Source of the DNA: Escherichia coli
GTDB lineage: Bacteria; Pseudomonadota; Gammaproteobacteria; Enterobacterales; Enterobacteriaceae
Assembly: GCF_022846255.1 (NCBI RefSeq)
Contig: NZ_AP025682.1
Length of the DNA stretch: 64,000 nucleotides
Reading direction: 5' to 3' (one strand)
Positions 18,974 to 53,114 of the stretch are shown piece by piece. A model generated the notes under the pieces. It ran no database searches, was not told the DNA's origin, and saw only the letters and a program-made list of their open reading frames with translations. The translations under genes and the position numbers were made by a program. Position 1 is the first letter of the stretch. The number at the start of each line of letters is the position of its first letter.

Positions 18974-19681
18974 ATGGATAAGATTATAGGGAAACAATTA
19001 CCTAAAAAAGATCAAGATAATGAACACTGGGTATCCATGTCAGACCTAATGGCAGGGCTGATGATGGTTTTTATGTTCATATCTATTGCTTATATGCACT
19101 ACGTACGTATTGAAAAAGAAAAAATTAAAGAAGTTGCCGTAGCCTACGAGAATGCTCAGTTACAGCTTTATAATGCTCTGGATATTGAGTTTGCAAAGGA
19201 TTTGCAAGACTGGGATGCAGAGATCGATAAGCAGACTCTGGAGGTTCGATTTAAATCACCGGATGTTTTATTTGGCTTAGGAAGCATAGAGCTTAAACCA
19301 AAGTTTAAACTCATTCTTGACGACTTCTTTCCTCGCTACCTAAAAGTTCTTGATAATTATCAAGAACATATTACTGAAGTCCGCATTGAAGGTCACACAA
19401 GTACTGACTGGACTGGAACAACGAATCCTGATATTGCTTATTTTAATAATATGGCACTATCACAAGGTCGTACACGTGCAGTATTACAATACGTTTATGA
19501 TATAAAAAATATCGCGACACACCAACAATGGGTTAAAAGTAAATTTGCCGCAGTAGGTTATTCATCTGCACATCCCATTCTTGATAAAACCGGCAAGGAG
19601 GATCCTAATCGCTCTCGTCGTGTCACCTTCAAAGTTGTAACAAATGCCGAGTTGCAGATTAGAAAGATTATTCAGGAGTAA
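18974..19681 (+). CDS. zorB: ZorB-like MotB/OmpA-family protein (single TM plus peptidoglycan-binding domain)
   Basis: N-terminal TM helix (LMAGLMMVFMFISIAYM) and OmpA_C-like motifs (IEGHTSTD, NMALSQGRTRAVLQY, NRSRRVTFKV); 7-nt gap after zorA. Confidence 0.7.
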   Translation: MDKIIGKQLPKKDQDNEHWVSMSDLMAGLMMVFMFISIAYMHYVRIEKEKIKEVAVAYENAQLQLYNALDIEFAKDLQDWDAEIDKQTLEVRFKSPDVLFGLGSIELKPKFKLILDDFFPRYLKVLDNYQEHITEVRIEGHTSTDWTGTTNPDIAYFNNMALSQGRTRAVLQYVYDIKNIATHQQWVKSKFAAVGYSSAHPILDKTGKEDPNRSRRVTFKVVTNAELQIRKIIQE

Positions 19682-33948: not shown

Positions 33949-34818
33949 TCAATCAAGAGGGATGGTCCACATTGACGTATCAAAATCGATCTCTGACCAG
34001 CGAGCAAAACGTAGCTCACTGGAGCGAATAAAGATAAGCAGAGTGAGTTCCGTTGCCCAGCGGGTTAGCGGCCTGCCGGTATAGCCGTCTATTTTCTCAA
34101 GTAACTCAGGGATGCGCTTTAACTCCAGCGCCGGACGATGCTGTCGATTACTGGAAGCAACCGCCCCCGCCATCTCTTGTGCCGGGTTATAATCAATTAA
34201 TCCACTTTGCACTGCATAACGCATGATGGCCGTGGTGCGCTGTTGAAGGCGGGAAGCCACTTCAAAACGTCCAGATTTCTCCACGGCTTTAATGGGAATT
34301 AACAGATCGCGGGTGCCCAGTTCAGCAATATTGCGAGCAACAATTGTTGGGAAGATATTGTCCTCCAGGCTCTTTTTTCCACGATTAGCATGATCTTCCG
34401 ACCATTTTTGGTTGGTTACGAGCCACTCTCTGGCAACCTTCTCGAAAGTAATAATCTCTTTCGCCTGCTCTTCTTTCACAGCACGTTTATGCTCACGAGG
34501 ATCGATACCAGCAGCGACCAGCTTTCTGGCCTCTTCCCTTTTCTTCCGCGCATCCGCCAGCGAAACATCCGGGTAAACGCCGAACGCCATCAAATGTTGT
34601 TTACCACCAAAACGGAAACGAAATCGCCAATACTTTGAACCGCCAGGTTTTACAAGTAAAGACATGCCGTCGCCGTCAACAAGTGAATACTCTTTCTCCT
34701 CAGGTTTTGCAGGACGAACTTTAGTATACGTTAGGGCTATAGTGGTCTTCCTTCCATTGGTATCTCGTGAGTATACAAGCAATATCGAATCGGCAAATAT
34801 ACTTATAAGTATACTCAC
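33949..34818 (-). pseudogene. P4-type tyrosine integrase, C-terminally truncated (intB-like remnant)
   Basis: Residues align with the N-terminal two thirds of the intact integrase at 51593-52840 (GSKYWRFRFRFGGKQ..., RLQQRTTAIMRYAVQSGLIDYNPAQ, LTLLIFIRSSELRFARWSEIDF) but end at ...WTIPLD before the catalytic region. Confidence 0.75.
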
Positions 34819-34940: not shown

Positions 34941-34963
34941 TGGTGCGAAGGCCGGACTCGAAC
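34941..34963 (-). repeat. 23-bp direct repeat of the leuX 3-prime end (att site / island junction)
   Basis: tggtgcgaaggccggactcgaac matches the 3-prime end of the tRNA at 53030-53054 except for one deleted base. Confidence 0.8.
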
Positions 34964-35685: not shown

Positions 35686-37371
35686 ATGTTTAAAATTATG
35701 AATGCCCATAGTTTAGAGATGAGAAAAGAGTTAGGAGCATATTATACTCCAAGTGCTCTTAGTCAAGTGATGTCAGATTGGGCAATTAGAAGACCAACTG
35801 ATAAAATACTTGAGCCAAGTTTTGGAGGCTGTGGCTTTTTAGAAAGCTGTGAAAAGAGCCTCATGGAGATAGGCTGCATAAACCCAATGGAAAATTTATT
35901 TGGGGTTGATGTAGACCAAAAAGCCTTTGATACTCTCAAAAAAAAATATGGGCATTTATTAATAAAAAAACATTTCATTTTAAGTGATTTCATTAACGTA
36001 TTTCCAAAAGATTTTGGCATTGAAGATTTTGAGGTTATCATTGGGAACCCTCCTTATATCTCTATGCATAATATGAGTTATGAACAAAGGAAGTCCTGTG
36101 AAAAAGTTTTTGCTGACTCACCTTTTAAAACAAAAACATTAGGACGCAATGCAAGTCTTTGGGGGTTTTTCTTACTCCATGCATTAAGCTTCATTCGAGA
36201 AAATGGACGAATAGCGTGGGTATTACCGAGTAGTTTTTTAAATGCCTATTATGCGAAAGAGCTTATAAGAATTTACAAAAATCATTTTAACCATCTAAAA
36301 ATAATAAAGATAAATGAAAGACTTTTCAAAAATGAAGGTGCCGATGAAATGTCAGTACTTTTTTTATGCGATGAGTTTCACAGGACACCTATCAATAATG
36401 GATACGTTTCAATTGGATTTGCTGACACATTAAATGAACTAACCAGCATAATGACTGGAACTAAAGAAAACAAATTAAATAGCTCTGAAAATTACAAATA
36501 TAATATATTAGATATTGACACATTAAATGTGATATCGTCTATAACAGAACATAAGTACAGTTTAAAAATACAGGATATTGCTGATATAAAGATTGGGATG
36601 GTAACCGGCATGAACAACTTCTTTATATTGGATCAAAATCAAATTTTAAAACATAATTTAGACAATAAACATTTTAGACCAGTTATTTCACGATTTTCAC
36701 ATTTGAAGGGAATTCACCACACATTAAAAAGACATACGAAGTTAATTGCAGACAATAAAAAAGGATTGCTATTACACGTCAGTCCAGATGATTTATATGA
36801 AAAACATAGTCCGTTGAGAAAATATTTATCACAAGTTGATAGAAAAGAACGAGTCAAAAACCGCACATTCAAAAAACGAAAAAAGTGGTTTCAACCAGAT
36901 GATGGTATTTACCCAGACGCATTTTTTTCATATATGGTTCATGAGTTTCCCAGAATGATATTAAATAAAGGGAAAGTTAACTGCACTAACTCAATACATC
37001 GTATCTTTTTCAAAGATATAGCATCTAATAAATTAAAAAAAGCATGTTGCATATCTCTTTTATCAACATTTTCACAACTTTCTGCCGAACTTGAAGGTCG
37101 GTCATATGGCTCAGGTGTGCTAAAAATAGAGCCTACCGCAGGAAAGAACATATCATTCTTAATTAAAGATGATTTAATACACGAGTTAAGCAACTTAAGT
37201 AAAGAAATAGATCAATTGCTTTTAAATAATGAAACAAGCAATGCCACTGCTTTAGTTGATAAGTTTTTTGTTGATAAGGGACTAATTAGCTTAGATGAAT
37301 TGAAAAGTCTTAAAAAAGGGTTATTCAGATTAAGAAAAGATCGATATAAAGGGGTCAAAAATTATGAGTGA
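35686..37371 (+). CDS. N6-adenine DNA methyltransferase (Eco57I-like gamma-class) with C-terminal extension
   Basis: Motifs GAYYTP, ILEPSFGGCGFL (motif I-like) and IIGNPPYIS (motif IV, approx 36044-36060); 561 aa; first gene of a tightly overlapping four-gene operon. Confidence 0.8.
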   Translation: MFKIMNAHSLEMRKELGAYYTPSALSQVMSDWAIRRPTDKILEPSFGGCGFLESCEKSLMEIGCINPMENLFGVDVDQKAFDTLKKKYGHLLIKKHFILSDFINVFPKDFGIEDFEVIIGNPPYISMHNMSYEQRKSCEKVFADSPFKTKTLGRNASLWGFFLLHALSFIRENGRIAWVLPSSFLNAYYAKELIRIYKNHFNHLKIIKINERLFKNEGADEMSVLFLCDEFHRTPINNGYVSIGFADTLNELTSIMTGTKENKLNSSENYKYNILDIDTLNVISSITEHKYSLKIQDIADIKIGMVTGMNNFFILDQNQILKHNLDNKHFRPVISRFSHLKGIHHTLKRHTKLIADNKKGLLLHVSPDDLYEKHSPLRKYLSQVDRKERVKNRTFKKRKKWFQPDDGIYPDAFFSYMVHEFPRMILNKGKVNCTNSIHRIFFKDIASNKLKKACCISLLSTFSQLSAELEGRSYGSGVLKIEPTAGKNISFLIKDDLIHELSNLSKEIDQLLLNNETSNATALVDKFFVDKGLISLDELKSLKKGLFRLRKDRYKGVKNYE

Positions 37372-39673
37372 AGATATTCTTTTTTTGAAGGATAAGATGA
37401 AAGCCCTCCTGGATAATGAGGCTCTCGATTATGATAAAGTATTAGAAACAGCAGTAAAAATCACCGAAAAAGACAACAACAATATTAGATTTTCTGTAGA
37501 TGCGAATTTAGTTAGAAGATTAGGTGAGCAGTTAGTCGCTAAAAAAACTACTGCTGTCAGTGAATTGGTGAAAAATGCTTATGACGCAGATTCGACATTA
37601 GTAAATGTATATTTCGAATTGAACGAAGCAAATCCTCGAATAGTCATATTCGATGACGGCACAGGTATGTCAAAGGAAGATATTATCAATGGATTCATGC
37701 GAATAAGCACAAGTGAAAAAGAAGATAACTCTGTTTCAGAACGATATCAGAGACTAAGAGCAGGTAGAAAAGGTATTGGGCGTTTTTCTACACAGCGATT
37801 AGGAAATTATTTAAAAATAATTACCAAGCAAGAAAATGAAGAGTTAGGATATTTAATAGAAATTAACTGGCAGCAGTTTTCAAAAAAGAAAAATATATCC
37901 TTCATTGCTAACACTATCTCAAAAATCGATGTGGATTTCATTCATGGAACAAAAATAATAATAGAAGATCTGAATGATAAAGATTGGTCTGATGGGAACA
38001 TAAAAACGGCTTATAAATATATTAAGAGCATTATAAATATTGCCCCAAGCGAGACAGATCCAGGTTTCCAAGTAAAGTTCTATTATAAAAATGCCAATGG
38101 CTATGAATTAGTTGCAGATGAGAAAACTGAAATTTTTTCTGATAGTGATGCTCATATTACAGCAACACTTGAAAATGGAAATGCTGTAGTGAGAGTTAGC
38201 AGTGAAACCCTTGGCATAAAAAATGAAAGCATAGATGTATGGTATGATGAAAAAAATAACATACGAAAATTCTCACATATAAACTCTCCAGTAAAGCTTG
38301 ATGCATACTATTTCTCATTAGCAACAGTTAACTCCAGAAAACAAGCGGCATATTTACGTGAAAATGGCGGAATAAAAATCTATCGAAATGGATTCAAGGT
38401 TTCTCCTTATGGAGAGCAGTATGATGACTGGACGGCTCTTGATGACTCGGTTCGAAGGAGAAAGATATTACCCCCTCATGGTAATCAAAACTTCTTTGGA
38501 CACGTCAAAGTTGAAGACCTAAATGGAATAGACTTTGAAGAAACGTCCTCAAGGGAAGGTCTGATTCATACCGATGCCTTTCAAGAACTTCGCCTCTTTG
38601 TATATAAAGCACTGACGGCTGCGGTAATAAGAATTAGTGAAGCCAGAAATATAAAAATAAATCCAAATGACCGTAGCTATGTTAAAGAAACTAAACCAAC
38701 AATATCAGTCAAAGATAAATTAAATATTGTATCTGAAACGATAAGCTCGGTTAGTAAATTGGTAGATGCAGCAACATCTGTTGATGACGTTTCAAGTGAT
38801 GGTGTCATTAATAACATTGAAGATAAAAGTATAAGAAACAAAATTATTGAAGATCTCCATGAAGCCGCAGATGAGCTAAAACAAGCGAGTGTGATATCTC
38901 AATCTTTAATCGATGAAATTGAGCTTCTTAGAGTGCTTGGCGCTATGGGCCTTGCTATTGGTGAGTTTACACACGAAATAAATTTATCAATAACAAGTTT
39001 GAGTATTAACGTTCAAAACCTTAAACAGTCTAAATTATTAGAGGAAGATAGAGACTCTGCTCTAAATAGCCTTGAAAATAATATTGCAACATTAAAATCA
39101 TTTACTAAATTTTTTGACAGTACTATACGTGAGAATGTAAACAGAAATAAGAAAGTTATTGAGATAAGAGACTCTATTGAGCCATTTTATGAATCGATGA
39201 AACCAATAATAGAACGCAAAGGAATTCAGTTTGCAATACATTATGAAGGTTATGAACTTTTTACGAAGCCGATTCATGTTTCAGAGCTATATTCTGTATT
39301 TATAAATCTCTTTACGAATGCATATAAAGCAATACTTCGTTCTGGAACAAATCCACGAAAAATGTCTTTAACTGCGAAAAAAGATAGTGAAGATATAATT
39401 ATCCGATTCGAAGATAGCGGTGATGGAATTGAACCTGCAAATAGAGAAAGAGTTTTTGAGCCTTTCTATACAACAAGTACACCATCAGGACCTTTTGAAA
39501 GTGATGATTTATCATTAAAAGGAATGGGATTGGGGTTATCAATCGTACGTGATCTCGTTGAATCCATGTCTGCAGAAATATCTATAGTTGATGCATCCGA
39601 TGGTTTTACAACGTGCTTTGAGTTGAGAATTCCAAAAGCTGATGATAAGGAAATACCAGATGACATCTATTAA
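37364..39673 (+). CDS. Dual Bergerat-fold ATPase: N-terminal MutL/HSP90/MORC-like GHKL module plus C-terminal histidine-kinase core (HisKA-like H-box + HATPase_c)
   Basis: N-terminal motifs ELVKNAYDAD (approx 37562-37591), DDGTGMS, GRKGIGRF; C-terminal H-box GEFTHEINLSITSL (approx 38961-39000), N-box LFTNAYKAIL, G1 EDSGDGIE, F-box FEPFYTT, G2 GMGLGLSIV; no obvious TM segment; start overlaps MTase stop by 8 nt. Confidence 0.7.
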   Translation: MSEDILFLKDKMKALLDNEALDYDKVLETAVKITEKDNNNIRFSVDANLVRRLGEQLVAKKTTAVSELVKNAYDADSTLVNVYFELNEANPRIVIFDDGTGMSKEDIINGFMRISTSEKEDNSVSERYQRLRAGRKGIGRFSTQRLGNYLKIITKQENEELGYLIEINWQQFSKKKNISFIANTISKIDVDFIHGTKIIIEDLNDKDWSDGNIKTAYKYIKSIINIAPSETDPGFQVKFYYKNANGYELVADEKTEIFSDSDAHITATLENGNAVVRVSSETLGIKNESIDVWYDEKNNIRKFSHINSPVKLDAYYFSLATVNSRKQAAYLRENGGIKIYRNGFKVSPYGEQYDDWTALDDSVRRRKILPPHGNQNFFGHVKVEDLNGIDFEETSSREGLIHTDAFQELRLFVYKALTAAVIRISEARNIKINPNDRSYVKETKPTISVKDKLNIVSETISSVSKLVDAATSVDDVSSDGVINNIEDKSIRNKIIEDLHEAADELKQASVISQSLIDEIELLRVLGAMGLAIGEFTHEINLSITSLSINVQNLKQSKLLEEDRDSALNSLENNIATLKSFTKFFDSTIRENVNRNKKVIEIRDSIEPFYESMKPIIERKGIQFAIHYEGYELFTKPIHVSELYSVFINLFTNAYKAILRSGTNPRKMSLTAKKDSEDIIIRFEDSGDGIEPANRERVFEPFYTTSTPSGPFESDDLSLKGMGLGLSIVRDLVESMSAEISIVDASDGFTTCFELRIPKADDKEIPDDIY

Positions 39674-40763
39674 CCTACTTTATATCGATGATGATCAGCC
39701 TCAGCAAGTAAAGGGTTTAATTGAAGCAATAATCAGTAAAGCGAGTTTTGATTTAAATATAACTCATAAACCGCCGACGAAAATGAGTGAAATAGCCATA
39801 GAGTTGAGACAAGGTTATGATGGTATCATCATAGATCAAAAACTTGACAGCTTTGTTGAGGGAGTAGAACCAGTTGATTACTTTGGTGCCGCGTTAGCAC
39901 AAAATTTGCGAACACTCATGGCGGGTAAGTCAGATAATATATCTTATAAGCCAATAATTTTACTCTCTCTCGAAAGCTTATTAATTGAATATTATAATCC
40001 CGATTCAAGCTCGCATGATCTATTTGATTTAGTTTTGAGTAAAAGCATATTAGAACAACCAGAATTGTTAGAAAAAAAAGTTCACTTAATAAAATCTATT
40101 GTGAATGCTTACAAACGTGCACATTCGGAAGACTCGTTATATCAATTGCTTTCTCTGAGCAGTAATTATTCATTGCTTGATAAAAGATTTGAAATATATA
40201 TTTCTCAGTATGATAAAGATATACATAAGCTCGTCACATCCATACACTCCACACTTCTGAGAAGTAGTGGCATGTTAGTTTCTGAGATAACTTTGGCAAC
40301 CAGACTGGGTATTAATATTGAAGAATCGCCAGACTGGCACCAAGTAATTGGGCACCTTGAGGAATATAAATACAATGGCATATTCTCTGATTATTATAAA
40401 AGATGGTGGTGGGCAGATGTAGAGTTGTGGATAAATAAAAAGCTTAACTGCCCAATAATTAAAGGATTAACCTCAGAAAAAAGAGTGGAGATCATCAAAG
40501 AAAAACTTGGCTTAGAACGATTGATGCCAATTCATAGCGTACATCCAGGCCAAAGCACCAAGTTTTGGGTTAATTGTATCATCAGTAAAGAACCTCTTGA
40601 TACAATAGATGCTCTTCGTGCATCATCTATGGAATTAAAACCTTGGGAAGATGATAAATACCTTTCAATTAAAACAGTGTTAGAGAGACGGGCCGAAAAA
40701 TATAAAGTACATCCAGAAGATAGAACAAAATTGGATCGAATTCGGGCGAGGTTTAAATTATAA
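39642..40763 (+). CDS. Receiver (REC)-like domain protein with unassigned ~250-aa C-terminal domain
   Basis: CheY-like pattern: LLYIDDD (beta1, acidic pocket), GIIIDQKL (candidate phospho-acceptor Asp), KPIILLSLES (beta4 Ser); divergent REC, so call is tentative; overlaps kinase gene stop. Confidence 0.5.
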   Translation: MIRKYQMTSINLLYIDDDQPQQVKGLIEAIISKASFDLNITHKPPTKMSEIAIELRQGYDGIIIDQKLDSFVEGVEPVDYFGAALAQNLRTLMAGKSDNISYKPIILLSLESLLIEYYNPDSSSHDLFDLVLSKSILEQPELLEKKVHLIKSIVNAYKRAHSEDSLYQLLSLSSNYSLLDKRFEIYISQYDKDIHKLVTSIHSTLLRSSGMLVSEITLATRLGINIEESPDWHQVIGHLEEYKYNGIFSDYYKRWWWADVELWINKKLNCPIIKGLTSEKRVEIIKEKLGLERLMPIHSVHPGQSTKFWVNCIISKEPLDTIDALRASSMELKPWEDDKYLSIKTVLERRAEKYKVHPEDRTKLDRIRARFKL

Positions 40764-41506
40764 TGAACAATAATACAACTTTGTTAGACGATATGTGTAG
40801 GCTCAGGGACTTTTTATATGATAGCCGCATATGCCCAGATATTAATCCTCTCAACCGTTTAATCAGTAAACTTAATGCAAATCTCCACTCCGAAACAGGG
40901 GAGGACTTTGAATACTCTTTAGACGATTTAGTATTTTATCTTAGCGAAAAATCTGGAACAATTTGTCCGACCCAAATTACACCCAAAGAAAACCCTATTG
41001 AAATACATTTGGAACTTATATTAAAAAGTGAAGGCCCTTATGAATTTTCGAAGATTAAAGAACTTTCAGGGCAATTACGACTTAAAGCTGAGTGGATCAA
41101 TGACACAACAGAAAAAATTGAGATAAAAACATCACATAGTGCTTGGCATTTTGATTATCATGTTCCTCAAATGGGGGATGGCGTAAATTCATTTACTCAT
41201 CCTCAATTCCATTTACAAAATGGAGGAAACAGGCTGACTGATAATTTAAATGACTATGGAGAGTTAATGATTCTTGATGCTCCAAGACTACCTTTACCTC
41301 CTATGGATGTGATATTAGCCATTGACTTTATTATTTCAAATTTCTTTGGTTCTATTTGGCAACAAGCATTATGTGATTCAGAATACATTGATGTAGTTAA
41401 AAGAGCACAAAAAGCATGGTGGAAACCTTATTATGAAGGTATAAGTCAACACTGGTCTGGCAATGGCTCAGGAATATCCAATATCCTAATTCCAAACCTT
41501 CTGTAG
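40763..41506 (+). CDS. Hypothetical protein (247 aa), fourth gene of the operon; possible effector
   Basis: ATG overlaps preceding stop (ATAATG); His-rich segment HFDYHVPQMGDGVNSFTHPQFH; no confident motif. Confidence 0.6.
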   Translation: MNNNTTLLDDMCRLRDFLYDSRICPDINPLNRLISKLNANLHSETGEDFEYSLDDLVFYLSEKSGTICPTQITPKENPIEIHLELILKSEGPYEFSKIKELSGQLRLKAEWINDTTEKIEIKTSHSAWHFDYHVPQMGDGVNSFTHPQFHLQNGGNRLTDNLNDYGELMILDAPRLPLPPMDVILAIDFIISNFFGSIWQQALCDSEYIDVVKRAQKAWWKPYYEGISQHWSGNGSGISNILIPNLL

Positions 41507-41771: not shown

Positions 41772-42185
41772 ATGAATGATAGGAATCATACTTTTAATAA
41801 GTTCGAGCCATTCAGAAGTTGTAGCTATGAAAATTTTACTTCTGCTAAAACACTCTCCCAGCAGACACGTTCTCATTGTATTAGTATCAGATTAAATGAT
41901 GCCGAGTTATCTTACGTTGATGGCTTACGAGAAGATCTCAACCGTGCTGTTTGGATACGTATGTCAGCATTGAATCGTCTCCCTTCCAAAATTCCTGAAA
42001 TAAATCTAATTGTCTGGAAAGACCTTGCCAAAGCATCTCAGAATCTGAATAACCTCGTTCAGCATCTCAACACTAAATCACACGATAGTCCTTTTACTAT
42101 CACCGAAATTTATACGGTACAAAAAAGAATAAAAGCACTAAGAGATGCCCTTCTGTCAGCAAATCGATCTGTCAGTGATAAATAA
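41772..42185 (+). CDS. MobC-like mobilization accessory protein
   Basis: Strong RBS aaggag 5 nt upstream of ATG 41772; small basic protein with ribbon-helix-helix-like segment (CISIRLNDAELSYVDGLRED); stop overlaps relaxase start (TAATG). Confidence 0.55.
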   Translation: MNDRNHTFNKFEPFRSCSYENFTSAKTLSQQTRSHCISIRLNDAELSYVDGLREDLNRAVWIRMSALNRLPSKIPEINLIVWKDLAKASQNLNNLVQHLNTKSHDSPFTITEIYTVQKRIKALRDALLSANRSVSDK

Positions 42186-43372
42186 TGAAAGGGATGCAAA
42201 AAATCCGCAGAGGAAAGAGTTTTGCTGGTGTCGTCCTCTATGCGTTAAAGCCCGGTTCTCATCATAAAAAAGACCCTATCGTGATCGGTGGAAATATAAC
42301 GATAGTTGGCAATGCCGCTAAAGATCTGATCGCTGAATTTGATAGCACCAAACAGCTTCGCCCTGACGTGCAAAAGGCTGTTTGGCACAACTCGCTTCGC
42401 TTACCTAAAGGTGAATCACTAACGGCTAAACAGTGGTCTGAAATAGCAGATGATTACATGTCCCGCATGGGCTTCTCTGAAACGCATCTCAGATGCTACG
42501 TCCTACATGACGACGAAGATGGCCAGCACATCCATATCATCGCCAGCAGAGTGTCTCTTGATGCCGGAAAGCTCTACCTCGGCAGGAATGAGAACCTGGC
42601 AAGCACGAGAATAATTCAGCAACTTGAAAGAAATTACAATCTGACAAGAACCAAAGGGCCAGGAGCTAAAGCATCTACATCTTCTCTTTCCTCTAAACCG
42701 AAACATAAAAAATCACGTAATGAGGCTATGTTAGAGGAGAGAACTGGTGAACCATGCCCTAAATCCATCATCCAAAGGGCTATAGATTCGATAACATTAA
42801 ATCCTATAGCAATTGATGACTTCGTTGAAAAGCTGAATAGCATAGGGATTACGGCGAAAAGCAATATTTCTTCAACTGGCAAGATGAATGGATTTTCCTT
42901 TGAATGCAAAGGTGTTGTGTTCAAAGCTTCCCAGCTTGGCAAGAAGTATAGTTGGAAGAACCTGGAATCAATGATTTCAATGAATTACAACTCACACATT
43001 GGTGATGAAAAACCTGTCATCCCTGAACCTGCTGCCCATCGCAGCAACGAAGCTGTCATACCTATAGTGGAAGACTATTCTGATGAAAAGATTTACCCTG
43101 AGATAAGGGTACCCTTACCAAGACCTGACACAGCGCCCACAAAACCTACAAGCATGACAATGCGTTGGATCGCAACCATACCTTATCTTGTGAGTGTTAT
43201 TAGCGCACTTAAAACGATGCGTATCCCCTTTCTAAAGGCGTTCAATGGCCCAAGGAAGTTCTTTTCCGTGTCCATGATTCACCTGTCCTCTGTAAGCCTG
43301 AAACAGACCAAAACGAATAATTTCAAACCAAAAAGTTCCCACCAAAAGGCCCACAAGCCCCTTCTCCCCTGA
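42185..43372 (+). CDS. Mobilization relaxase (MobA/VirD2-like)
   Basis: Relaxase histidine triad region HDDEDGQHIHIIASRV (HxH motif), N-terminal nickase-like domain; coupled to the MobC-like gene. Confidence 0.65.
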   Translation: MKGMQKIRRGKSFAGVVLYALKPGSHHKKDPIVIGGNITIVGNAAKDLIAEFDSTKQLRPDVQKAVWHNSLRLPKGESLTAKQWSEIADDYMSRMGFSETHLRCYVLHDDEDGQHIHIIASRVSLDAGKLYLGRNENLASTRIIQQLERNYNLTRTKGPGAKASTSSLSSKPKHKKSRNEAMLEERTGEPCPKSIIQRAIDSITLNPIAIDDFVEKLNSIGITAKSNISSTGKMNGFSFECKGVVFKASQLGKKYSWKNLESMISMNYNSHIGDEKPVIPEPAAHRSNEAVIPIVEDYSDEKIYPEIRVPLPRPDTAPTKPTSMTMRWIATIPYLVSVISALKTMRIPFLKAFNGPRKFFSVSMIHLSSVSLKQTKTNNFKPKSSHQKAHKPLLP

Positions 43373-44756: not shown

Positions 44757-44850
44757 CGCCTTGAAAATATTAGCAAGATAATAATCCATAAAGGATAATA
44801 TAAAAACCAAAATAATATGCTACGGTAGTTGTTATAAAAATCACATAAAA

Positions 44851-45273
44851 CTACAGTCCATATTTTTTCCTTTTATCCTTCATCAATAATTCTCTTTTTA
44901 GGGTAGAAGCCTCATGTTTCCTTCTCTCATTAATATAGACTTTTTCGGTTCTACTACCATTGCTCACAATGAAATTGATAAGTGAAGAGCATACGTTTTT
45001 CATACGCTCTTTATCGAGCATGTCATTTTCAATATTATTGATATTGCAGTAATAAGAAAGTAGTAAAAAATTCAACACTACTTCCCTGTTTGAGAACGTT
45101 AGTTTTTCTATTTCAGGCTGGTATTTAATGTAGAACCCGGCACAAAACAGGTATGATTGTTCGATAATTTGTTGCTCTGAGAAGTCTGATTCAGAGAGTT
45201 TATCAACGAATCGATCAAGTAGAAGAAGATACCTTTCCATCAAATGAATATTTATTTTTTCCATAACATGCAT
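44851..45273 (-). CDS. Hypothetical protein (140 aa)
   Basis: ORF in AT-rich island cargo downstream of the recombinase operon; no motif recognised. Confidence 0.5.
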   Translation of the reverse strand: MHVMEKINIHLMERYLLLLDRFVDKLSESDFSEQQIIEQSYLFCAGFYIKYQPEIEKLTFSNREVVLNFLLLSYYCNINNIENDMLDKERMKNVCSSLINFIVSNGSRTEKVYINERRKHEASTLKRELLMKDKRKKYGL

Positions 45274-45357
45274 CCTTGCAATTTATTTTGCCATCCTGAC
45301 AATTAAATAAATACCATAATTATTAATCACGTCAATAGTTAAAACCTATCTATTTTA

Positions 45358-45756
45358 TTAAAGGTATTTTGCAGGTAACGGATTATTAAGTTCTTCAATC
45401 GTTATTTGTTTAAGGTGAGCATTATAAAGCCATACTTTGAACTGCTCTAAATAGCGTTCATTTAATGCCTTCAAAGCCTCATTTTCTGCTTCAAGTCTTC
45501 TAATTCGTTGAGAAGCCACTTTTAAATTAGCAGGTTTTACAGTATGTATTGCACCAGATTTGATAGTGGCCTTTTTCACACTGAAGCTTTCTGCAATCCT
45601 TACATGACTACTTAAGGATTGTCTTGATGGTCTTTTCCCAATAATCCTTACTAACCTGTCGCACAAAGCATCCCAGGTTAGTTTTTCATCTATAGACCAT
45701 GTGTTAATAACATCTACAATCTTCTTCTCATGATAACCATTTATATGCTTAGCCAT
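45358..45756 (-). CDS. Small basic coiled-coil protein (132 aa), accessory gene of the recombinase operon
   Basis: Starts 1 nt after the stop of the 543-aa recombinase; heptad segment RIRRLEAENEALKALNERYLEQ. Confidence 0.55.
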   Translation of the reverse strand: MAKHINGYHEKKIVDVINTWSIDEKLTWDALCDRLVRIIGKRPSRQSLSSHVRIAESFSVKKATIKSGAIHTVKPANLKVASQRIRRLEAENEALKALNERYLEQFKVWLYNAHLKQITIEELNNPLPAKYL

Positions 45757-47388
45757 TTATTCTCCTTTTTTTATTCTCTTATGGAATTCATACCATCTAT
45801 CAGCATTTATGTTCCCATCATTTTTATCATACAGTGTTCTTTTTGAAATTTTATCGTGAATTTTTGAAATCGTTTCGTTATCTAAACCAGAATTCTCAAT
45901 CGGATAATGTTCACACGGCTTAAACGCATATGAGTGCTTGCAGTAGCCATGTTTTGATACCAGTACTGCACCACTACTAAGTGAATCAAACTCATTAAGA
46001 ACCACCACTGGAATATCCTTTATTCTGTGCTCATTAACACACACTGATAACTTTTGTTCTCTTATTGCTTTAGACATTTGAAGATGCGATCTGTGGTCAT
46101 AAGAAAAATTTTGAGAAATAAGCTTACGTCCAGACCAGCGAGCAATACTAAACTCATCCATACCATTTATTTGAGCAAAAGTGTTGAGAAGATGCCTCAG
46201 TTGATGTGTTCTTAGCAAATATGGGCTACCATCATCATTTATATAACCATGTCTTTTAAATACATTTAAATATCCTTTTATATAATCAGAATCAACGATA
46301 TCAGTTTTAAAAAAATTCGTTGTAGGTCTGAATAACTTATCTAACATTTCCTTTTTATTTTGATTTAACTGTCCTTCAGTTAACAAGCAAAGCGCATTAG
46401 AATATTTGATTTTCTTCTCTCTATCATACCAAAAGAGATCTGGAGGTATATTTTCTTTAAGGGTTCCCATCGTTGAATTAGAGTAATTCTTTTGAATTTC
46501 AGCAGCCAATAATCTCGCTTGACTTGATAATTCTTTTAATCTGCTAATAGCCTTTTTTGCTACAGGTATCATTAAAGTTGGAATCCATTTTATATTGCCT
46601 TCATACCCTTTTGCTGAAAAAAATCTTAAACCGTATCTTTGAATGCCCTTTCCATCACATTCTGTAATTTCACAATCCACTGGCAAAGCTAAAATTTCCG
46701 ATATCCTACTCGGTGCACACATAAGTAAAGCAAGCACAGATGTAGTAAATATATCTCTTGACGATAATTGTTCATCCCGCTTTGAAAAAATCTCAGCAAT
46801 CGCAATAACTGATTTGATATCAGGCAATCTAGAATGGCCTTCCAGTGAAGAATCATAACCAGTCCAAGACTGAGTAATCCTATACCTAATTGGACTTATC
46901 CAAAATAAATAAGATGAGTTAGTCATCCTATTATCATTTAAAAATGAACTCAATTTCTCAAGTTCTTTCCCAATAGCAAATGCATGTGCTTTAGAATACT
47001 TTTCAGAGGCTATCCTTATGCATTCATCAAAGATTGAATTGTTGCAATAGTTTACATTAGCTTCCATATTGATTTTAAGTAAAACGAATTCGACAATCTT
47101 CAACATTGATAATGTTGAGTGTTTCGTCTTAGATTTATTGAATGAATGCACATGCAACATATATGCTTTAGCAAAATTAATAAAGCTATCATCTAAGCAT
47201 TCTTTGCTGTTTAGGTTGTTTTTTGAGTTAAACTTAGTAAACCTATATAAACCTTTCCATTTATTGCTTTCCCAAGAAGTTGTTAAATTATTATTAGAAA
47301 TAGTACTCTTACAAAACTCGATGAACTTAATAACATTATCGTGAGGGTTGTTTTTATTGCTTGGTTCAAAAATAAATATATTGTTCAT
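45757..47388 (-). CDS. Tyrosine recombinase (543 aa), third of three tandem recombinases
   Basis: Catalytic-region motifs PSRISEIL (box I Arg), HQLRHLLNT (HxxR), downstream Tyr region; 4-nt overlap with the upstream recombinase gene. Confidence 0.65.
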   Translation of the reverse strand: MNNIFIFEPSNKNNPHDNVIKFIEFCKSTISNNNLTTSWESNKWKGLYRFTKFNSKNNLNSKECLDDSFINFAKAYMLHVHSFNKSKTKHSTLSMLKIVEFVLLKINMEANVNYCNNSIFDECIRIASEKYSKAHAFAIGKELEKLSSFLNDNRMTNSSYLFWISPIRYRITQSWTGYDSSLEGHSRLPDIKSVIAIAEIFSKRDEQLSSRDIFTTSVLALLMCAPSRISEILALPVDCEITECDGKGIQRYGLRFFSAKGYEGNIKWIPTLMIPVAKKAISRLKELSSQARLLAAEIQKNYSNSTMGTLKENIPPDLFWYDREKKIKYSNALCLLTEGQLNQNKKEMLDKLFRPTTNFFKTDIVDSDYIKGYLNVFKRHGYINDDGSPYLLRTHQLRHLLNTFAQINGMDEFSIARWSGRKLISQNFSYDHRSHLQMSKAIREQKLSVCVNEHRIKDIPVVVLNEFDSLSSGAVLVSKHGYCKHSYAFKPCEHYPIENSGLDNETISKIHDKISKRTLYDKNDGNINADRWYEFHKRIKKGE

Positions 47389-48710
47389 AATGCTCTCCAG
47401 GGATTGAATTTTTTACACGTTAAGCATTTCAAATCCTCTTTCGTATCTTCTAATAAGAAAAATGCATCTGAAACATACTTGATAAAAAAGTTCTTGTTTT
47501 CTTCAATCTCTATGCCCATAAGTATATTAGATAAGGGGTTAAAAAACGCACTTAGTCTCTTATCGATGTCATAAACGTTGTCAGGATTGTTTTTTATATA
47601 TATCATAGAAGAGTTTACTGATTTATGATCTAAGGCTTTAGCAATCACCTCAATTGAGGCTCCTTCGTTAGCCAGTCGACTTCCTAACGTATATCTGAAT
47701 CTTCTAGCATTAAGTTCTATATAGCTGTTAGTCCTTTCTGACCTAACATCGAATTTTGACGGAAAGTGTTTTAATAGTTTTGACATAACTGAATTTTTCA
47801 TATGGAAAAAATCTGTTGTTAAATCAGATAAAAAATCCTCAATCCTTTTTGTTTCCGTAATCTTATCTAAATTCATGAAGATTGGTAATTCGCCTCTATA
47901 GTTATTAATCCCAACACTGAATTTATCTTCAACAAACGCCTGATTTTGATTAATTAGCATTGATAAACTGTCATATAAGAACGGTTCTATCATTACCATA
48001 TTAAATTCTTTTCTGAAACATTTTCTTTGTTTTACTTTTGGTACATTCAAAAAGCACCCTCTCTCATTTTTAATGAGATCTTTAGCTTTTAGAGATATCA
48101 ATTGTAATGGCCTTCTTCCTGTTATTGCCAGCAAAAGGATATAACAATACAAAAAGCATTGAATTTTCTTCTCATGATAAAATTTTCCAACGGCGTTAAT
48201 AATGTTATTGAATTCCGTTTCAGTTAAAGGTCCTTTATTTGGATCTCGTCTTTTAACTGCATCTCCTGTTTGGTTTGGAATGATTTTTATTTTCTCCAGC
48301 ATTCTAATGGCAGTCGCATCTACCCCAGGGTAATTGAGATTTTTCCATTTAGTGATGAAAGCCTTAATTGAGTTTAGTTTGTAGTTTCTTTCTGAACCTA
48401 AATAAACATTCAATTGATATATTGCTTTGTCATCAATAGTATCGATGGTCATTGCACCAAACCACTTATAAAATAGATTGTTAATATTTTGTATATAAAA
48501 AGAACTATATTCAGACGCATAGTAAGCTAATGTTTTTAAGTAGCTAAGTTTCATTTTTGTAGGCATTCTATCTACAACTTTATGAGGGTATACGCAGTTT
48601 TCTTTATCAAGTTGCCATTTCTTATCTGACAGTTTGAAACTATATCTATTCATCTTAGCAAAAAAAATTTGCTCACTTTCAATACATTTTATTTCCACAT
48701 TAAACCCCAC
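47385..48710 (-). CDS. Tyrosine recombinase (441 aa), second of three
   Basis: Motifs ITGRRPLQLISLK (box I Arg), RFRYTLGSRL and LDHKSVNSSMIY (box II); overlaps neighbours at both ends. Confidence 0.65.
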   Translation of the reverse strand: MGFNVEIKCIESEQIFFAKMNRYSFKLSDKKWQLDKENCVYPHKVVDRMPTKMKLSYLKTLAYYASEYSSFYIQNINNLFYKWFGAMTIDTIDDKAIYQLNVYLGSERNYKLNSIKAFITKWKNLNYPGVDATAIRMLEKIKIIPNQTGDAVKRRDPNKGPLTETEFNNIINAVGKFYHEKKIQCFLYCYILLLAITGRRPLQLISLKAKDLIKNERGCFLNVPKVKQRKCFRKEFNMVMIEPFLYDSLSMLINQNQAFVEDKFSVGINNYRGELPIFMNLDKITETKRIEDFLSDLTTDFFHMKNSVMSKLLKHFPSKFDVRSERTNSYIELNARRFRYTLGSRLANEGASIEVIAKALDHKSVNSSMIYIKNNPDNVYDIDKRLSAFFNPLSNILMGIEIEENKNFFIKYVSDAFFLLEDTKEDLKCLTCKKFNPWRAL

Positions 48711-49905
48711 TAATTATTTTACTTACTGATTTATAGACCTTTAGGACGACATCCTTCTCTTGTTGGGATATATATTTAAAATTGTATCTATTACACATGA
48801 TTGACTCCTTTGACCAACCCATTAGATAATTCCTTAAATCTTTCCTTCTACTATATTCTAATTCAGCGCCTTCAATTCCTTTAGAATACATATAATTCCA
48901 AGAGTGCCTTAACCTATGACCTGAAAGATTATATAGCTTTGGACTTGCTCGTTTCAGTGTTGATATCACCTTCTCATAAGCTGAAATGCTTAAGGGTTCT
49001 CCTGCGTTTTTTCCGGTGCAATGAGCCACGAATAAGAAATTATGTTTTTTCCTTTTTGTCATTTTTTCCCTGCTATTGCTTATGTAATCAAAAATTTCAC
49101 TGGCTAACTCATCAGATAACGGAATAACCCTTTCTCCAGTCTTTACTAATGGCTGATAAGCTCTTCCATCTTCTTTTGAATCATGTCTTCTGACTACACT
49201 TAAAGTGTTGTCTCTGAGATCAAAATCATCTATTTTAAGATTGAGCAACTCTCCAGCCCTTAAACCTAAATTTAAGAGCAAGGTAAATATTAGTCTGTTC
49301 CTGACCTGTACTTCCTTATGAAAAGGGTTTTCAATCCCACCAATTTCCAATAGACGGAAAAGCACATTGATCTCTTCTTCATTTAACGATTTTTCAGATA
49401 TTTCATTCATATTCAATGAACTGTTTCTTGGAATATGTGCTCTGATACTTTCAATAAATACTTCTACTTCATACTTTGCATGAATCCCCTTTGACGAATG
49501 AACTAATCCACATAACCACTTAAGGTAGCGTGAAAAAACGTGTACTCTATAACTAAAGGTTCTCTTTGCAATAAACCTATTACTTGCTGATTTTATATTT
49601 ATAATTTTTTGTCTATCGAATCTTTGTTTCGCATATCTTACCAGATCATCTATTTCTGCAACGCTGAGATACTTTTTAAGCTCAATTCTCTCAACTATAT
49701 TAATTTTCCTACTATCTAAGAAATTACTAAAAATTAGTAAGTTAGTTGCAACTATTTCCATAGTTGAGGCGGTTGCGCCTCTATTTCTTATGTCTGTAGT
49801 AAGAAATAGATTTTGATAGTAAGCTGGTAGATTACTATTTTTATCAAGGATCAGGCATCCTCGCTCCCCATTACTCATGATGAATTTCTTTACTTTATAT
49901 CCCAT
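48700..49905 (-). CDS. Tyrosine recombinase (401 aa), first of three
   Basis: Motifs LGLRAGELLNLKIDD (box I Arg), GHRLRHSW (HxxR), LMGWSKESIMCNRY (box II Tyr). Confidence 0.65.
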   Translation of the reverse strand: MGYKVKKFIMSNGERGCLILDKNSNLPAYYQNLFLTTDIRNRGATASTMEIVATNLLIFSNFLDSRKINIVERIELKKYLSVAEIDDLVRYAKQRFDRQKIINIKSASNRFIAKRTFSYRVHVFSRYLKWLCGLVHSSKGIHAKYEVEVFIESIRAHIPRNSSLNMNEISEKSLNEEEINVLFRLLEIGGIENPFHKEVQVRNRLIFTLLLNLGLRAGELLNLKIDDFDLRDNTLSVVRRHDSKEDGRAYQPLVKTGERVIPLSDELASEIFDYISNSREKMTKRKKHNFLFVAHCTGKNAGEPLSISAYEKVISTLKRASPKLYNLSGHRLRHSWNYMYSKGIEGAELEYSRRKDLRNYLMGWSKESIMCNRYNFKYISQQEKDVVLKVYKSVSKIISGV

Positions 49906-50029
49906 TTTGACCTCATTCTTTACAAATTAATATCACTCTCACTTATTAAATATATTCCAATTCAAAATAATTCAAATTTTTTACAATGGCTTTAGTTTAT
50001 TTGGTATATATATTAATGGCTTGAAAAAA

Positions 50030-50049
50030 TTTATTTGACGTCAAATAAA
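50030..50049. repeat. 20-bp perfect palindrome upstream of the recombinase trio
   Basis: tttatttgacgtcaaataaa centred on GACGTC, ~125 bp upstream of the first recombinase start codon. Confidence 0.5.
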
Positions 50050-50287
50050 CAGGTACGGCTAGTATTGAGTATCCATACCCGATATTAAGAAAACCATCTT
50101 CAACCCTTATAGCAAAAGCTCTGCTAGAAAAAAGGTAAAGAATTACGTCAAATATACTTATTTTTCAGATACAAACTTTACAAAGCCTCTTTTTTTTCAA
50201 AGCCACTAAGTAAACTCAAAAGATCTCTAAATTCCTTTTTCTTAATACATTATCAAAAGTTAAAAAATCCATGAAGCAGCATTCCTG

Positions 50288-50611: not shown

Positions 50612-51523
50612 TCACTCAGAGTCTGAGAGTTTCATAACATCCGAAACCCTCATTTCTTTAACATGCTGATTTTTATTGATAAAAAAGTTAAATTGCCTTA
50701 AAAAATCAATTTCTACAGTTTTCATTGCGAAAGGCCGATCAGCATCTCTTATATGATATCCTTGGCGAATCGCCTTATCATCATCTTCATCCGTGTATAG
50801 CAATCGAGATAATCTGTCGTCTGACAGAAGTAATTTTTTTCTTTCTGACCATGCGAGCAAATCAAGCATAGGGATAATTCGATAGCTAATTAATTTTTTT
50901 ATTGCCCCATAACCAAATCTGACTGCATCAAGTGGTGCAGGTTTAACGCCTTTTACTTTTCGCCATTGTGGTAATGATACTCGCAGGGCCTCAGCTATCT
51001 CATCATCGCTTCCACCCGCAAGATCGATTTCTAACATAATCGTAGTAGGAAACTGTTCAGGAATTTTTTCGGAAATATATTCATTTTCAATAGTGGAATC
51101 AATTTTATATTGTTCTGTATTTGCTCTAATGAATAAAGCCTTTCTCATACAATCAAAACTGATATTTGCTATTCGATCAACAGTAGTAATAAAAAAGTAT
51201 GGGGGTTGATATAATTTATTTTCGGCATCCATATAATTTAAGTGCTTCTCTTTGATAAGAAAAGGATCACCATCCAATATCTGCATATAATTTTTCAATA
51301 CTGTTTTCTGCATTCCTTCTTCTATTACTGGTTTGAAAAAATAGGTTCTCGCCCATATTTCATGGTAAAGCATATTAATAGAAATGTTTTCAAACCCTCG
51401 ATATTTGTCCAAATCAAACCACGTTTTCACTGCTTTGGTGTCTTCTGATGTCCAACTATTCATTTTTACCCAAGATTTCATTAATGCCACTCCGTTGTAA
51501 AAAGTTTTACTTCGTAATAGCAC
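50612..51523 (-). CDS. Hypothetical protein (303 aa) of the integrase-alpA module
   Basis: ORF between integrase and alpA on the same strand; no motif recognised. Confidence 0.55.
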   Translation of the reverse strand: MLLRSKTFYNGVALMKSWVKMNSWTSEDTKAVKTWFDLDKYRGFENISINMLYHEIWARTYFFKPVIEEGMQKTVLKNYMQILDGDPFLIKEKHLNYMDAENKLYQPPYFFITTVDRIANISFDCMRKALFIRANTEQYKIDSTIENEYISEKIPEQFPTTIMLEIDLAGGSDDEIAEALRVSLPQWRKVKGVKPAPLDAVRFGYGAIKKLISYRIIPMLDLLAWSERKKLLLSDDRLSRLLYTDEDDDKAIRQGYHIRDADRPFAMKTVEIDFLRQFNFFINKNQHVKEMRVSDVMKLSDSE

Positions 51524-51592: not shown

Positions 51593-52840
51593 TTAGTTAT
51601 TAAAATCAAAAGGTGCAATTCTTCTCTTAGTTGTTTCATCAAGATAATCAGCCCACCACTGCAACATCAACCTACGCTCATCCAAATGCTCAGCTTTATG
51701 AATGTATGCGGCACGAACGGAGTTCCGCTCCTGATGGCTCATCTGCCTCTCAACAGCATCTCTCGACCACTTTCCTGACTCGATCAAAGCACTACAAGCC
51801 ATCGCTCTAAAACCATGCCCACATACCTCAACGGTTGTGTCATAACCCATCGCCCTGAGCGCCTTGTTCACTGTGTTTTCGCTCATAGGTTTTCTGAAAT
51901 CATGATCGCCAATGAATACCAGGTCGCATTCGCCGCTGATTTCTCTGATGGCTTTTAGAAGTTCTAAAGCCTGACGACTTAACGGCACGAGGTGTGGGGT
52001 CTTCATTTTTGAACCTCGATGGGAATGTTTGACTCCTGGCAATAGCTCGCGTTCTCCAGGGATAGTCCACATCGCATTTTCAAAGTCGATCTCCGACCAT
52101 CTTGCGAATCGGAGTTCAATGGAACGGATAAAAATGAGCAATGTCAGCTTCACAGCTAATTTAGTAAGTTTCCTACCTTTAAAGCTTTCAATGCGCTCTA
52201 AAAGCTCTGAGAACCTATCAAATGGTAAGGCTGGTCTGTGGGTTCGTTTCGCAACTGTAATTGCCCCAGACATATCTTGTGCTGGATTGTAGTCAATTAA
52301 GCCATTCTGGACGGCATATCGCATTACTGCCGTAGTCCTTTGCTGTAGTCGGGAAGCAACTTCCAGTCGTCCAGAAGCTTCAACGGCCTTGATAGGGGCG
52401 ATAAGATCTCTGGTATTAAGCTCGGATATTTTTCTTTTACCAATAGCAGTAAAGAGACCATCCTCCATGCTTTTTAGAACTCTTTCGCTGTGAGAATCTG
52501 ACCATTTCCTTTTACAGGCAGTATGCCAGTCCCTTGCAACAGCTTCGAATGTCAGGGCTTCGCTTTGCTCAATCTTATCTGCTTTTTTCTTTTCAGAAGG
52601 ATCGATACCATCAGATACCAACTTTTTGGCTTCATCTCGCTTCCTGCGGGCTTCACCAAGAGAGACCATTGGATAAACACCCAATGCTAAAACTTTCTGT
52701 TTGCCCCCGAAACGGTATTGGAGTCGCCAGTACTTTGAACCATTGGGGTTGATCAGCAGGTGCATACCCTGCCCATCTGTGAGTTTGAAAGGTTTATCGG
52801 AGGGCTTTGTTGTTCGAACTTTGATATCAGTGAGTGCCAT
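51593..52840 (-). CDS. P4-type tyrosine integrase (intact)
   Basis: 415 aa; N-terminal GSKYWRLQYRFGGKQ and C-terminal catalytic region (HGFRAMACSAL, conserved Tyr region AAYIHKAE); starts 190 bp from the tRNA 3-prime end. Confidence 0.85.
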   Translation of the reverse strand: MALTDIKVRTTKPSDKPFKLTDGQGMHLLINPNGSKYWRLQYRFGGKQKVLALGVYPMVSLGEARRKRDEAKKLVSDGIDPSEKKKADKIEQSEALTFEAVARDWHTACKRKWSDSHSERVLKSMEDGLFTAIGKRKISELNTRDLIAPIKAVEASGRLEVASRLQQRTTAVMRYAVQNGLIDYNPAQDMSGAITVAKRTHRPALPFDRFSELLERIESFKGRKLTKLAVKLTLLIFIRSIELRFARWSEIDFENAMWTIPGERELLPGVKHSHRGSKMKTPHLVPLSRQALELLKAIREISGECDLVFIGDHDFRKPMSENTVNKALRAMGYDTTVEVCGHGFRAMACSALIESGKWSRDAVERQMSHQERNSVRAAYIHKAEHLDERRLMLQWWADYLDETTKRRIAPFDFNN

Positions 52841-53029: not shown

Positions 53030-53114
53030 TGGTGCCGAAGGCCGGACTCGAACCGGCACGTATTTCTACGGTTGATTTTGAATCAACTGCGTCTACCGAT
53101 TTCGCCACTTCGGC
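53030..53114 (-). tRNA. leuX: tRNA-Leu (leuX-like, 85 nt with long variable arm)
   Basis: Acceptor stem GCCGAAG/CUUCGGC, T-arm GGTTCGAGTCC and 3-prime CCA read on the minus strand; sits between ahr and a P4-type integrase as at the K-12 leuX locus. Confidence 0.9.

Follow-up and report, generated by a model that had tools for sequence, protein, structure and literature searches.

A one-sided palindrome beside the predicted attI core of a gin recombinase module in Escherichia coli

What is a perfect 20-bp palindrome doing in the short leader between a regulatory gene and a set of recombinase genes? The question is raised by TTTATTTGACGTCAAATAAA, found at 50030-50049 in a 64,000-nucleotide stretch of an Escherichia coli genome (contig NZ_AP025682.1 of RefSeq assembly GCF_022846255.1), referred to here as the window. 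It had been picked out from the sequence as a possible recombinase binding or crossover site, or an operator, for a trio of recombinase genes. The palindrome itself is confirmed and is unique in the window, where tttatttgacgtcaaataaa (50030-50049) is the sole match even when three mismatches are tolerated. Perfect palindromes with arms of at least 10 bp occur twice in the window (50030-50049 and 19346-19367), and shuffles that preserve the local 500-bp composition give an expectation of 0.1. The second one is 22 bp long (GTTCTTGATAATTATCAAGAAC), and its centre GATAATTATC resembles a Fur box. The genetic context had also been read correctly, the site being inside the 382-bp gap (49906-50287) between alpA and the first recombinase gene, ginA, whose ATG is 125 bp downstream. 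The best reading of the palindrome is that it marks the ginA-proximal arm of attI, the recombination site of a GInt. That it is an accessory protein-binding element of this predicted site, belonging to the ginABCD module, has in our judgement about an even chance of being right.

The leuX island and the gin operon

The palindrome belongs to a low-GC island of 18.1 kb that is bounded by an 18-bp repeat of the leuX 3' end. The main features are the following.

34946..34963, no strand assigned: 18-bp direct repeat of the leuX 3' end at the far island end, identical to 53036-53053
42185-43372: MobA/VirD2-type relaxase
45358..45756, minus strand: ginD, 132 aa, candidate palindrome binder, 100% tblastn identity to the L001 region
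45757..47388, minus strand: ginC, 543 aa, annotated as 'DNA-binding protein'; the O157 orthologue is GinC in the PMC10214605 supplement
47385..48710, minus strand: ginB, tyrosine recombinase, ORF of 441 aa, Pfam PF00589
48700..49905, minus strand: ginA, tyrosine recombinase, 401 aa, Pfam PF00589
50288..50491, minus strand: alpA, Phage_AlpA helix-turn-helix protein, upstream neighbour of the conserved block described below
50612-51523, minus strand: DUF6387 protein
51593-52840, minus strand: P4-type integrase, adjoining leuX
53030..53114, minus strand: leuX, tRNA-Leu(CAA), the integration site

The island also encodes a DUF4755 protein, and its cargo at 35686-41506 encodes a 561-aa Eco57I-like N6 methyltransferase, a protein of 769 aa that contains two GHKL ATPase domains, and a further two without a family match; the cargo may serve in restriction or defence. 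Over 13.4 kb the window is 99.2% identical to E. coli strain TUM11353. Just past the leuX repeat, at 33949-34818, there is a second P4-type integrase gene, truncated to its Arm-DNA-bind_3 and Phage_int_M domains only, which points to islands in tandem at leuX.

The four gin ORFs (401, 441, 543 and 132 aa) are contiguous or overlapping on the minus strand, and together with a 140-aa ORF (p140) they span 44851-49905. For ginB, RefSeq annotates 437 aa in L001, a locus 99.2% identical to this one, and the NCBIfam model NF041502 scores just under its cut-off. The kind of element, a GInt, is already known. As in the published GInts, there are two clear tyrosine recombinases, a divergent third and a small fourth protein, in the same gene order (PMC5385486); here these are two PF00589 genes, a third with R, HxxR, W and Y, and a small fourth gene, all in one orientation. 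The third protein, GinC, has no sequence match in Pfam or the PDB. In an alignment of GinC sequences with 33-96% identity, R228, H395-x-x-R398, W418 and Y430 are invariant, and this R...HxxR...W...Y series looks like a complete tyrosine-recombinase box I/II signature. The published motif is in contrast incomplete, as GinC is described as being without the first arginine (PMC5385486) or without the catalytic motif (PMC10214605). The L001 product that matches the 132-aa protein of the window is WP_001052044.1. This protein, together with WP_001052051.1 and WP_001059531.1 of O157, is found in the ginC-ginD synteny blocks of Additional file 10 of PMC10214605, which come from PSI-BLAST searches started with GinC and GinD of Pseudomonas stutzeri (DSM 4166) (PMC10214605).

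Close relatives diverge directly after the ginD stop codon, which matches the start of the cargo in published GInts (PMC5385486, Bardaji et al.). The gap between ginD and the 140-aa ORF (45274-45357, minus strand) contains a conserved promoter-like TTGACA-16 nt-TATTTC preceded by TGA, with an inverted repeat TGATAG...CTATTG over the -35 and another, TTGTCA-GGA-TGACAA, downstream. This gap was considered as attR and rejected, as it is conserved, lacks a variable hexamer and resembles a regulated promoter. On the other side, all loci of the window's family that extend far enough upstream encode DUF6387 and AlpA ahead of the gin block (DUF6387 down to 29% identity), as do the more distant L078 and L080/L081, with or without a P4-type integrase. 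The exception is L082/L083 (1-3293), where two RVT_1 reverse-transcriptase genes and another integrase replace the DUF6387 and alpA genes.

A conserved leader and its hypervariable spacer

Upstream of ginA lies a block of about 265 bp in which conservation far exceeds that of the surrounding genes. Stretches of this block are nearly identical in elements whose GinA proteins are only 67-70% identical, as seen in an alignment of E. coli relatives with ten loci from Enterobacter, Pantoea, Erwinia, Citrobacter, Kosakonia and Klebsiella. The leader contains the following elements.

49918..49926, minus strand: proximal motif TTTGTAAAG, which directly repeats the distal motif and lies just 5' of the ginA ribosome-binding site
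50024..50029, minus strand: T6 run (TTTTTT) on the gin side of the palindrome, shared by T1 and T2 loci but missing from T3 loci (the palindrome types given below)
50030..50049, no strand assigned: palindrome of type T1, TTTATTTGACGTCAAATAAA, proposed accessory binding site of a gin-encoded dimer
50050..50062, minus strand: ginA-proximal core arm CTAGCCGTACCTG, conserved in all loci including L078 (GinA 47%)
50063..50068, minus strand: 6-bp spacer TCAATA, presumed overlap and crossover, 59 distinct sequences in 76 copies
50069..50083, minus strand: ginA-distal core arm ATCGGGTATGGATAC, imperfect inverted repeat of the proximal arm
50145..50153, minus strand: third copy of a half-site-like 9-mer, ATTTGACGT, with G/A variation independent of the palindrome type
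50173..50184, minus strand: distal motif TTTGTAAAGTTT at the outer edge of the block, beyond which three unrelated types of flank start

The place of the palindrome within the block is fixed. It starts exactly 3 nt past CTAGCCGYAC in 77 of 77 related loci, and in L078, where GinA is only 47% identical, both core and palindrome are kept at the same offset. In E. coli the block occurs in 363 genomes, always with a single copy of the palindrome. Short palindromes are commoner in AT-rich DNA such as this, and a chance palindrome without function would on that account be conceivable. The expectation is only 0.1 per window, however, and the palindrome keeps its offset in some 80 loci, even where GinA identity drops to 47% and while the neighbouring leader diverges. 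This conservation rules out a chance origin, which is effectively refuted and retains next to no probability.

Directly beside the palindrome, at 50050-50083, lies the sequence ATCGGGTATGGATAC-N6-CTAGCCGTACCTG (minus strand), whose two arms (GGTATGGATAC and GGTACGGCTAG) repeat each other imperfectly in inverted orientation. The core sites of tyrosine recombinases are laid out in this way, as inverted arms flanking a 6-bp centre. The spacer between the arms, about 160 bp upstream of ginA, was compared across loci, 63 further ones coming from a metagenome scan in which both arms were required and the spacer was left free; 76 copies with enough flanking sequence were analysed. Among the 76 copies there are 59 spacer variants, which follow the pattern NNNN[A/T]A: position 6 is A in 75 of 76 copies, and position 5 is A or T. 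Spacers diverge to saturation (about 0.5 per site) while 279 flanking bases differ by 0.7%. Between pairs with identical bases at 400 third-codon positions of ginA the divergence is already 0.34 per site, and at 1.2% ginA third-position divergence it is 0.53 per site. The spacer thus changes at about 40 times the synonymous rate, so that relaxed constraint is an insufficient explanation and an active process is needed. The arms also vary in a coordinated way across the core, GGATAC being found with CTG and GACTAC with TGG.

Such behaviour is familiar from published elements. GInts make 6-nt staggered cuts, and in 50% of re-excised circles the attI overhang has been swapped for that of attB (PMC5385486). 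The site in the window shares with them its position just upstream of ginA and a 6-nt overlap with sequence turnover, the latter seen here as comparative evidence only. The attS site of SEs is likewise built from two motifs, C and C', that form imperfect inverted repeats of 13-19 bp, and the 6-bp spacer between them is passed on from one site to the next (PMC10214605). Taken together, the inverted arms, the spacer turnover and the published behaviour of GInts and SEs lead us to read 50050-50083 as the probable crossover core, the attI of this GInt. This bears directly on the original prediction. Its proposal of a recombinase binding or crossover site holds as far as the palindrome lies in a recombination-site region linked to the trio and is very probably bound by protein, as its type co-segregates with gin. 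The crossover part does not hold, since the signature of a hypervariable 6-bp spacer is found 13 bp away, within 50050-50083, and the ACGT at the centre of the palindrome is invariant. The palindrome is therefore probably not the crossover itself.

The palindrome could still be a second core, with 7-bp arms TTTATTT and AAATAAA around an overlap GACGTC (50037-50042), used by one of the recombinases. Inverted 7-bp arms around a 6-bp centre resemble tyrosine-recombinase cores, with three recombinase paralogues more than a single DNA specificity is to be expected, and in the distant relatives L080 and L085 the palindromes overlap the core arm and repeat arm-like bases. If the same machinery acted on it, though, the same turnover would be predicted, and the central hexamer has only three states, always palindromic and with ACGT invariant, whereas the spacer 13 bp away has 59. 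A partner copy is missing as well, and we regard a second core as very unlikely. The partner site envisaged at the other end of the element was sought within the window with up to 3 mismatches, with blastn-short and with half-site and arm searches, and neither a copy nor a pair of half-sites was found; in E. coli the palindrome stands alone in 363 of 363 genomes. The window likewise contains no second arm-like copy of the core. The arm-like sequence GGTAAGGGTAC at 43109-43119 was discarded, since it belongs to an unrelated 14-bp palindrome within the relaxase gene.

The third copy of ATTTGACGT was rejected as a co-varying half-site, as it does not track the palindrome type, and it is probably a separate motif. 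The sequence TTTGTAAAG(TTT) forms a direct repeat, with one copy at the block's outer edge and the other just ahead of the ginA ribosome-binding site, and TGTAAA motifs are present at comparable places in GInt leaders with 35-47% GinA identity (L078, L079, L080, L082, L084). These TGTAAA motifs may be arm-type binding sites. The outer edge at 50184 had also been considered as one end of a 5.35-kb mobile module (44834-50184), based on BLAST breaks against O157, L006 and L007. This module was rejected because the alignment continues past 44834 at lower identity, and 50184 is simply the edge of the conserved block.

Palindrome forms and candidate binding proteins

Across about 80 loci the palindrome is found in three forms, and all internal differences between them are symmetric.

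T1: TTTATTTGACGTCAAATAAA
T2: TTTCTTTCACGTGAAAGAA[A/T/G]
T3: TTTATTTAACGTTAAATATA

Pair 4:17 is either A:T or C:G, and pair 8:13 is found in three Watson-Crick states (G:C, C:G or A:T). The central ACGT and the flanking runs of T and A (the T/A triplets) are invariant, and pairing is lost in some loci only at the outermost one or two positions, as in the T2b, T2c and T3 forms. The covariation amounts to three haplotypes, and so reflects few evolutionary events. With this in mind, the symmetric switches and the invariant bases indicate base-specific recognition of a dyad, with switches in specificity. Strict base conservation together with concerted two-sided changes argues for a dyad-symmetric protein site rather than a purely structural hairpin.

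Two explanations based on structure can be weighed against the same data. The first is that a cruciform, or a hairpin in a single-stranded intermediate, guides strand-specific processing. A perfect AT-rich palindrome beside a nicking site, with covariation that keeps the pairing, would suit such a role, and for the SEs, strand-biased relatives of GInts, single-stranded intermediates have been hypothesised (PMC10214605). The conclusion of that work is nevertheless that SE intermediates are double-stranded (PMC10214605), and in the loci studied here the sequence is conserved well past what pairing needs, while outer pairs are broken in T2b, T2c and T3. We consider a role as DNA structure to be highly improbable. 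The second is that the palindrome and its T-run form an intrinsic terminator or attenuator that halts alpA transcripts before they reach ginA. On the gin-sense strand of T1 and T2 loci there is indeed a hairpin followed by T5-T7, and compensatory changes keep it paired. The hairpins are weak, however (-5.4 kcal/mol for T1 and -7.8 kcal/mol for T2), their stems contain one or two GC pairs, and T3 is unfolded (-1.7, z = -0.1) and lacks the T-run. A terminator scan does not call the palindrome, and there is no sequence variation at eight of the ten pairs or in the loop, a constraint beyond what structure alone would require. A terminator is, if anything, slightly more improbable still than a DNA structure. 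In Rfam, the only match is a chance snoRNA hit (E = 0.18) under the gathering score.

If the palindrome is a protein site, the next question is which protein binds it. Palindrome type T1 is found with GinA proteins of 94-100% identity to that of the window, and T2 and T3 with GinA proteins of 67-72%. AlpA proteins of 99-100%, about 90% and about 72% identity, on the other hand, are each seen with both T1 and T2, and the palindrome type assorts independently of both the AlpA type and p140. As the type follows the gin clade and not AlpA or p140, the binder is most likely encoded within ginA-D and not by alpA or the host. AlpA, DUF6387 and p140 were rejected as binders for the same reason, their types assorting independently of that of the palindrome. 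Within the operon GinD is the leading candidate, with GinC as the alternative. GinD is conserved across the family, and its structural model (pLDDT 83) has a four-helix N-terminal domain and a C-terminal helix of 38 residues, which fits a dimeric DNA binder. Searches with the fold and against the PDB gave no significant match; weak ones to bZIP and bHLH-ZIP coiled coils (E 0.1-0.8) do not count as evidence. The predicted recognition region of GinD, GKRPSRQSLSSH, is nearly identical in T1 and T2 elements even though their palindromes differ, which weakens GinD as the determinant of specificity. GinD has been compared to TnpC of Tn554, which sets the orientation of insertion (PMC5385486).

A mechanism consistent with these observations would be as follows. 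The Gin recombinases would cut in a staggered way across the 6-bp overlap at 50063-50068, between the two inverted-repeat arms. A dimer encoded by gin (GinD or GinC) would dock on the palindrome, and so abut the ginA-proximal arm only. The bound palindrome would turn a nearly symmetric core into an asymmetric one, and in this way could set orientation or directionality. With its position between outside transcription and ginA, the palindrome could in addition damp or insulate the expression of gin.

This last step touches on the operator that had originally been suggested. The stronger version of that idea is that the palindrome is mainly a transcriptional operator, which represses gin or insulates it from alpA or outside read-through, with no direct role in recombination. 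The site is in the leader, 125 bp upstream of ginA, and dyad symmetry with specificity switches would suit the operator of a repressor equally well. Accessory sites of recombinases double as operators elsewhere, for instance in the res site of Tn3 and the IRS of Tn5401. In published GInts, transcription enters ginA from outside, besides starting at an internal promoter (PMC5385486). On the other hand, no sigma-70-like promoter overlaps or closely flanks the palindrome on either strand. TTGACG, present in each arm, was examined as a -35 element and dismissed for want of a suitably spaced -10 on either strand. The position of the palindrome is locked with zero variation to the core arm, not to a recognisable promoter element, and its type is independent of AlpA, the only obvious regulator nearby. 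An operator without a recombination role is for these reasons unlikely. A regulatory function may nonetheless go together with the accessory-site reading preferred here, as by analogy accessory recombination sites often regulate as well.

An inverted-repeat core with one-sided accessory motifs directly upstream of a recombinase gene is also the arrangement in the TnpI-IRS systems of Tn4430 and Tn5401, and in lambda attP. In these, the accessory sites impose directionality and can regulate transcription. In them it is the recombinase itself, Xis, IHF or Fis that occupies the accessory motifs, and the overlaps are not known to be hypervariable. The comparison is offered as an analogy and implies no homology between the sites.

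Distribution, exchange and related elements

Of 5426 complete E. coli genomes, 363 (about 6.7%) carry a single gin module, among them the O157:H7 genomes sampled, and the block was absent from the plasmid collection searched. For comparison, GInts have been reported in 7.5% of Escherichia replicons (PMC10214605). Wherever the 5' part of ginA is present in these E. coli genomes (363 of 363), the block is complete and unsplit. Neither a split attL/attR pair nor an empty attB was found in these 363 genomes, and the metagenome pattern by design required an intact core; in E. coli the distal 115 bp are always accompanied by the half with the palindrome. Since the site is never split and the distal 115 bp are never alone, the distal side is not simply target DNA. 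The idea of the core as an attL junction with the distal 115 bp as target DNA was rejected on the same grounds, and also because the arm variants on the two sides are linked. These observations suggest that the whole island would be the GInt circle, opened at the P4-integrase/tRNA site and not at attI.

The two sides of the core appear to have been exchanged between islands. In pairwise comparisons among 52 loci, the divergence of the 115 bp beyond the spacer correlates more with the alpA side (Spearman 0.78) than with ginA (0.43), and the segment from the palindrome to the ginA ATG more with ginA (0.84) than with the alpA side (0.50). In discordant pairs each segment follows its own side (0.96 vs 0.79; 0.88 vs 0.95). 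The correlations and the discordant pairs together point to exchange between related islands at or very near the core. It is conceivable, though distinctly unlikely, that the gin trio is a module exchanger which acts at an intact attI, swapping the int-alpA and gin-cargo halves of related islands and repeatedly rewriting the overlap, with palindrome types as specificity tags and with integration left to the P4-type integrase and AlpA. If this were the case, genomic islands would fall into recombination 'compatibility groups', each Gin set acting solely on its own class of sites.

Compared to published GInts, the element in the window thus differs in several ways. The attI-form site is intact in every genome seen, and it is inside a tRNA-gene island with a P4-type integrase. 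GInts insert at a specific attB with ginABCD at their 5' end, between hybrid attL and attR sites (10-11-nt imperfect direct repeats); excision and integration depend on all four genes, and circles arise as intermediates. In the window no such pair of repeats was found, the island being bounded instead by the 18-bp leuX repeat. Neither a palindrome nor an inverted repeat is mentioned in PMC5385486. SEs also have four core genes, including a non-standard protein with a recombinase fold and a small TnpC-like protein. Their gene order is different (IntA-Tfp-IntB-Srap), and SE and GInt proteins form separate clusters (PMC10214605). The GmtY model of the SE and gamma-mobile-trio group scores 24 and 22 bits here against a cut-off of 340, and the proteins are listed among the GInt blocks. 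Tn554 (TnpA, TnpB and TnpC, with att554) shares two tyrosine recombinases, a small orientation protein and a transferred 6-bp core (PMC10214605, PMC5385486), but it has no third recombinase-like protein and its hosts are Firmicutes. RITs consist of three recombinases of 315-410 aa with the catalytic tyrosine, between 34-bp terminal inverted repeats and without a fourth gene (PMC10214605, Table 1). In the window the three proteins have 401, 441 and 543 aa and are followed by a conserved fourth gene, and no terminal inverted repeats were found.

In the literature consulted, the anatomy of the site, the specificity variants of the palindrome and the always-intact site in mobilisable, tRNA-integrated islands are undescribed, and the termini of enterobacterial GInts are undefined in published work. 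GInts, SEs and Tn554-like elements move genes for resistance, virulence and defence against phages. The locus provides a testable map of a GInt site, with two arms, a 6-bp overlap with measurable turnover, a one-sided palindrome and the repeated TGTAAAG, and the natural T1, T2 and T3 variants are a ready set of swaps for assigning the binding protein. Unsplit gin modules inside relaxase-carrying islands that integrate at tRNA genes also change how GInts are to be delimited in genome surveys.

More distant relatives show how far this layout extends. Where GinA is 35-39% identical, the sequence upstream of ginA still shows a 6-8-bp centre flanked by inverted arms, as well as TGTAAA motifs. At the ginA-proximal arm, L080/L081 have an unrelated perfect palindrome of 16 bp (CACCTTATATAAGGTG) and L085 another of 18 bp (ATTCCCCAGCTGGGGAAT), both about 130-150 bp from the ginA ATG, a distance similar to that in the window. 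L079 has a clear core with no adjoining palindrome. Judging from these leaders, a one-sided palindrome is recurrent in GInts, but not universal. L080 4250 and L081 4253 are the same island (99.8% identical, GinA 39% identical to that of the window) in two chromosomal contexts. This island has no integrase beside DUF6387, and its left edge carries TGGTCGGCACGAGAGGATT, which by eye resembles the 3' end of a tRNA gene.
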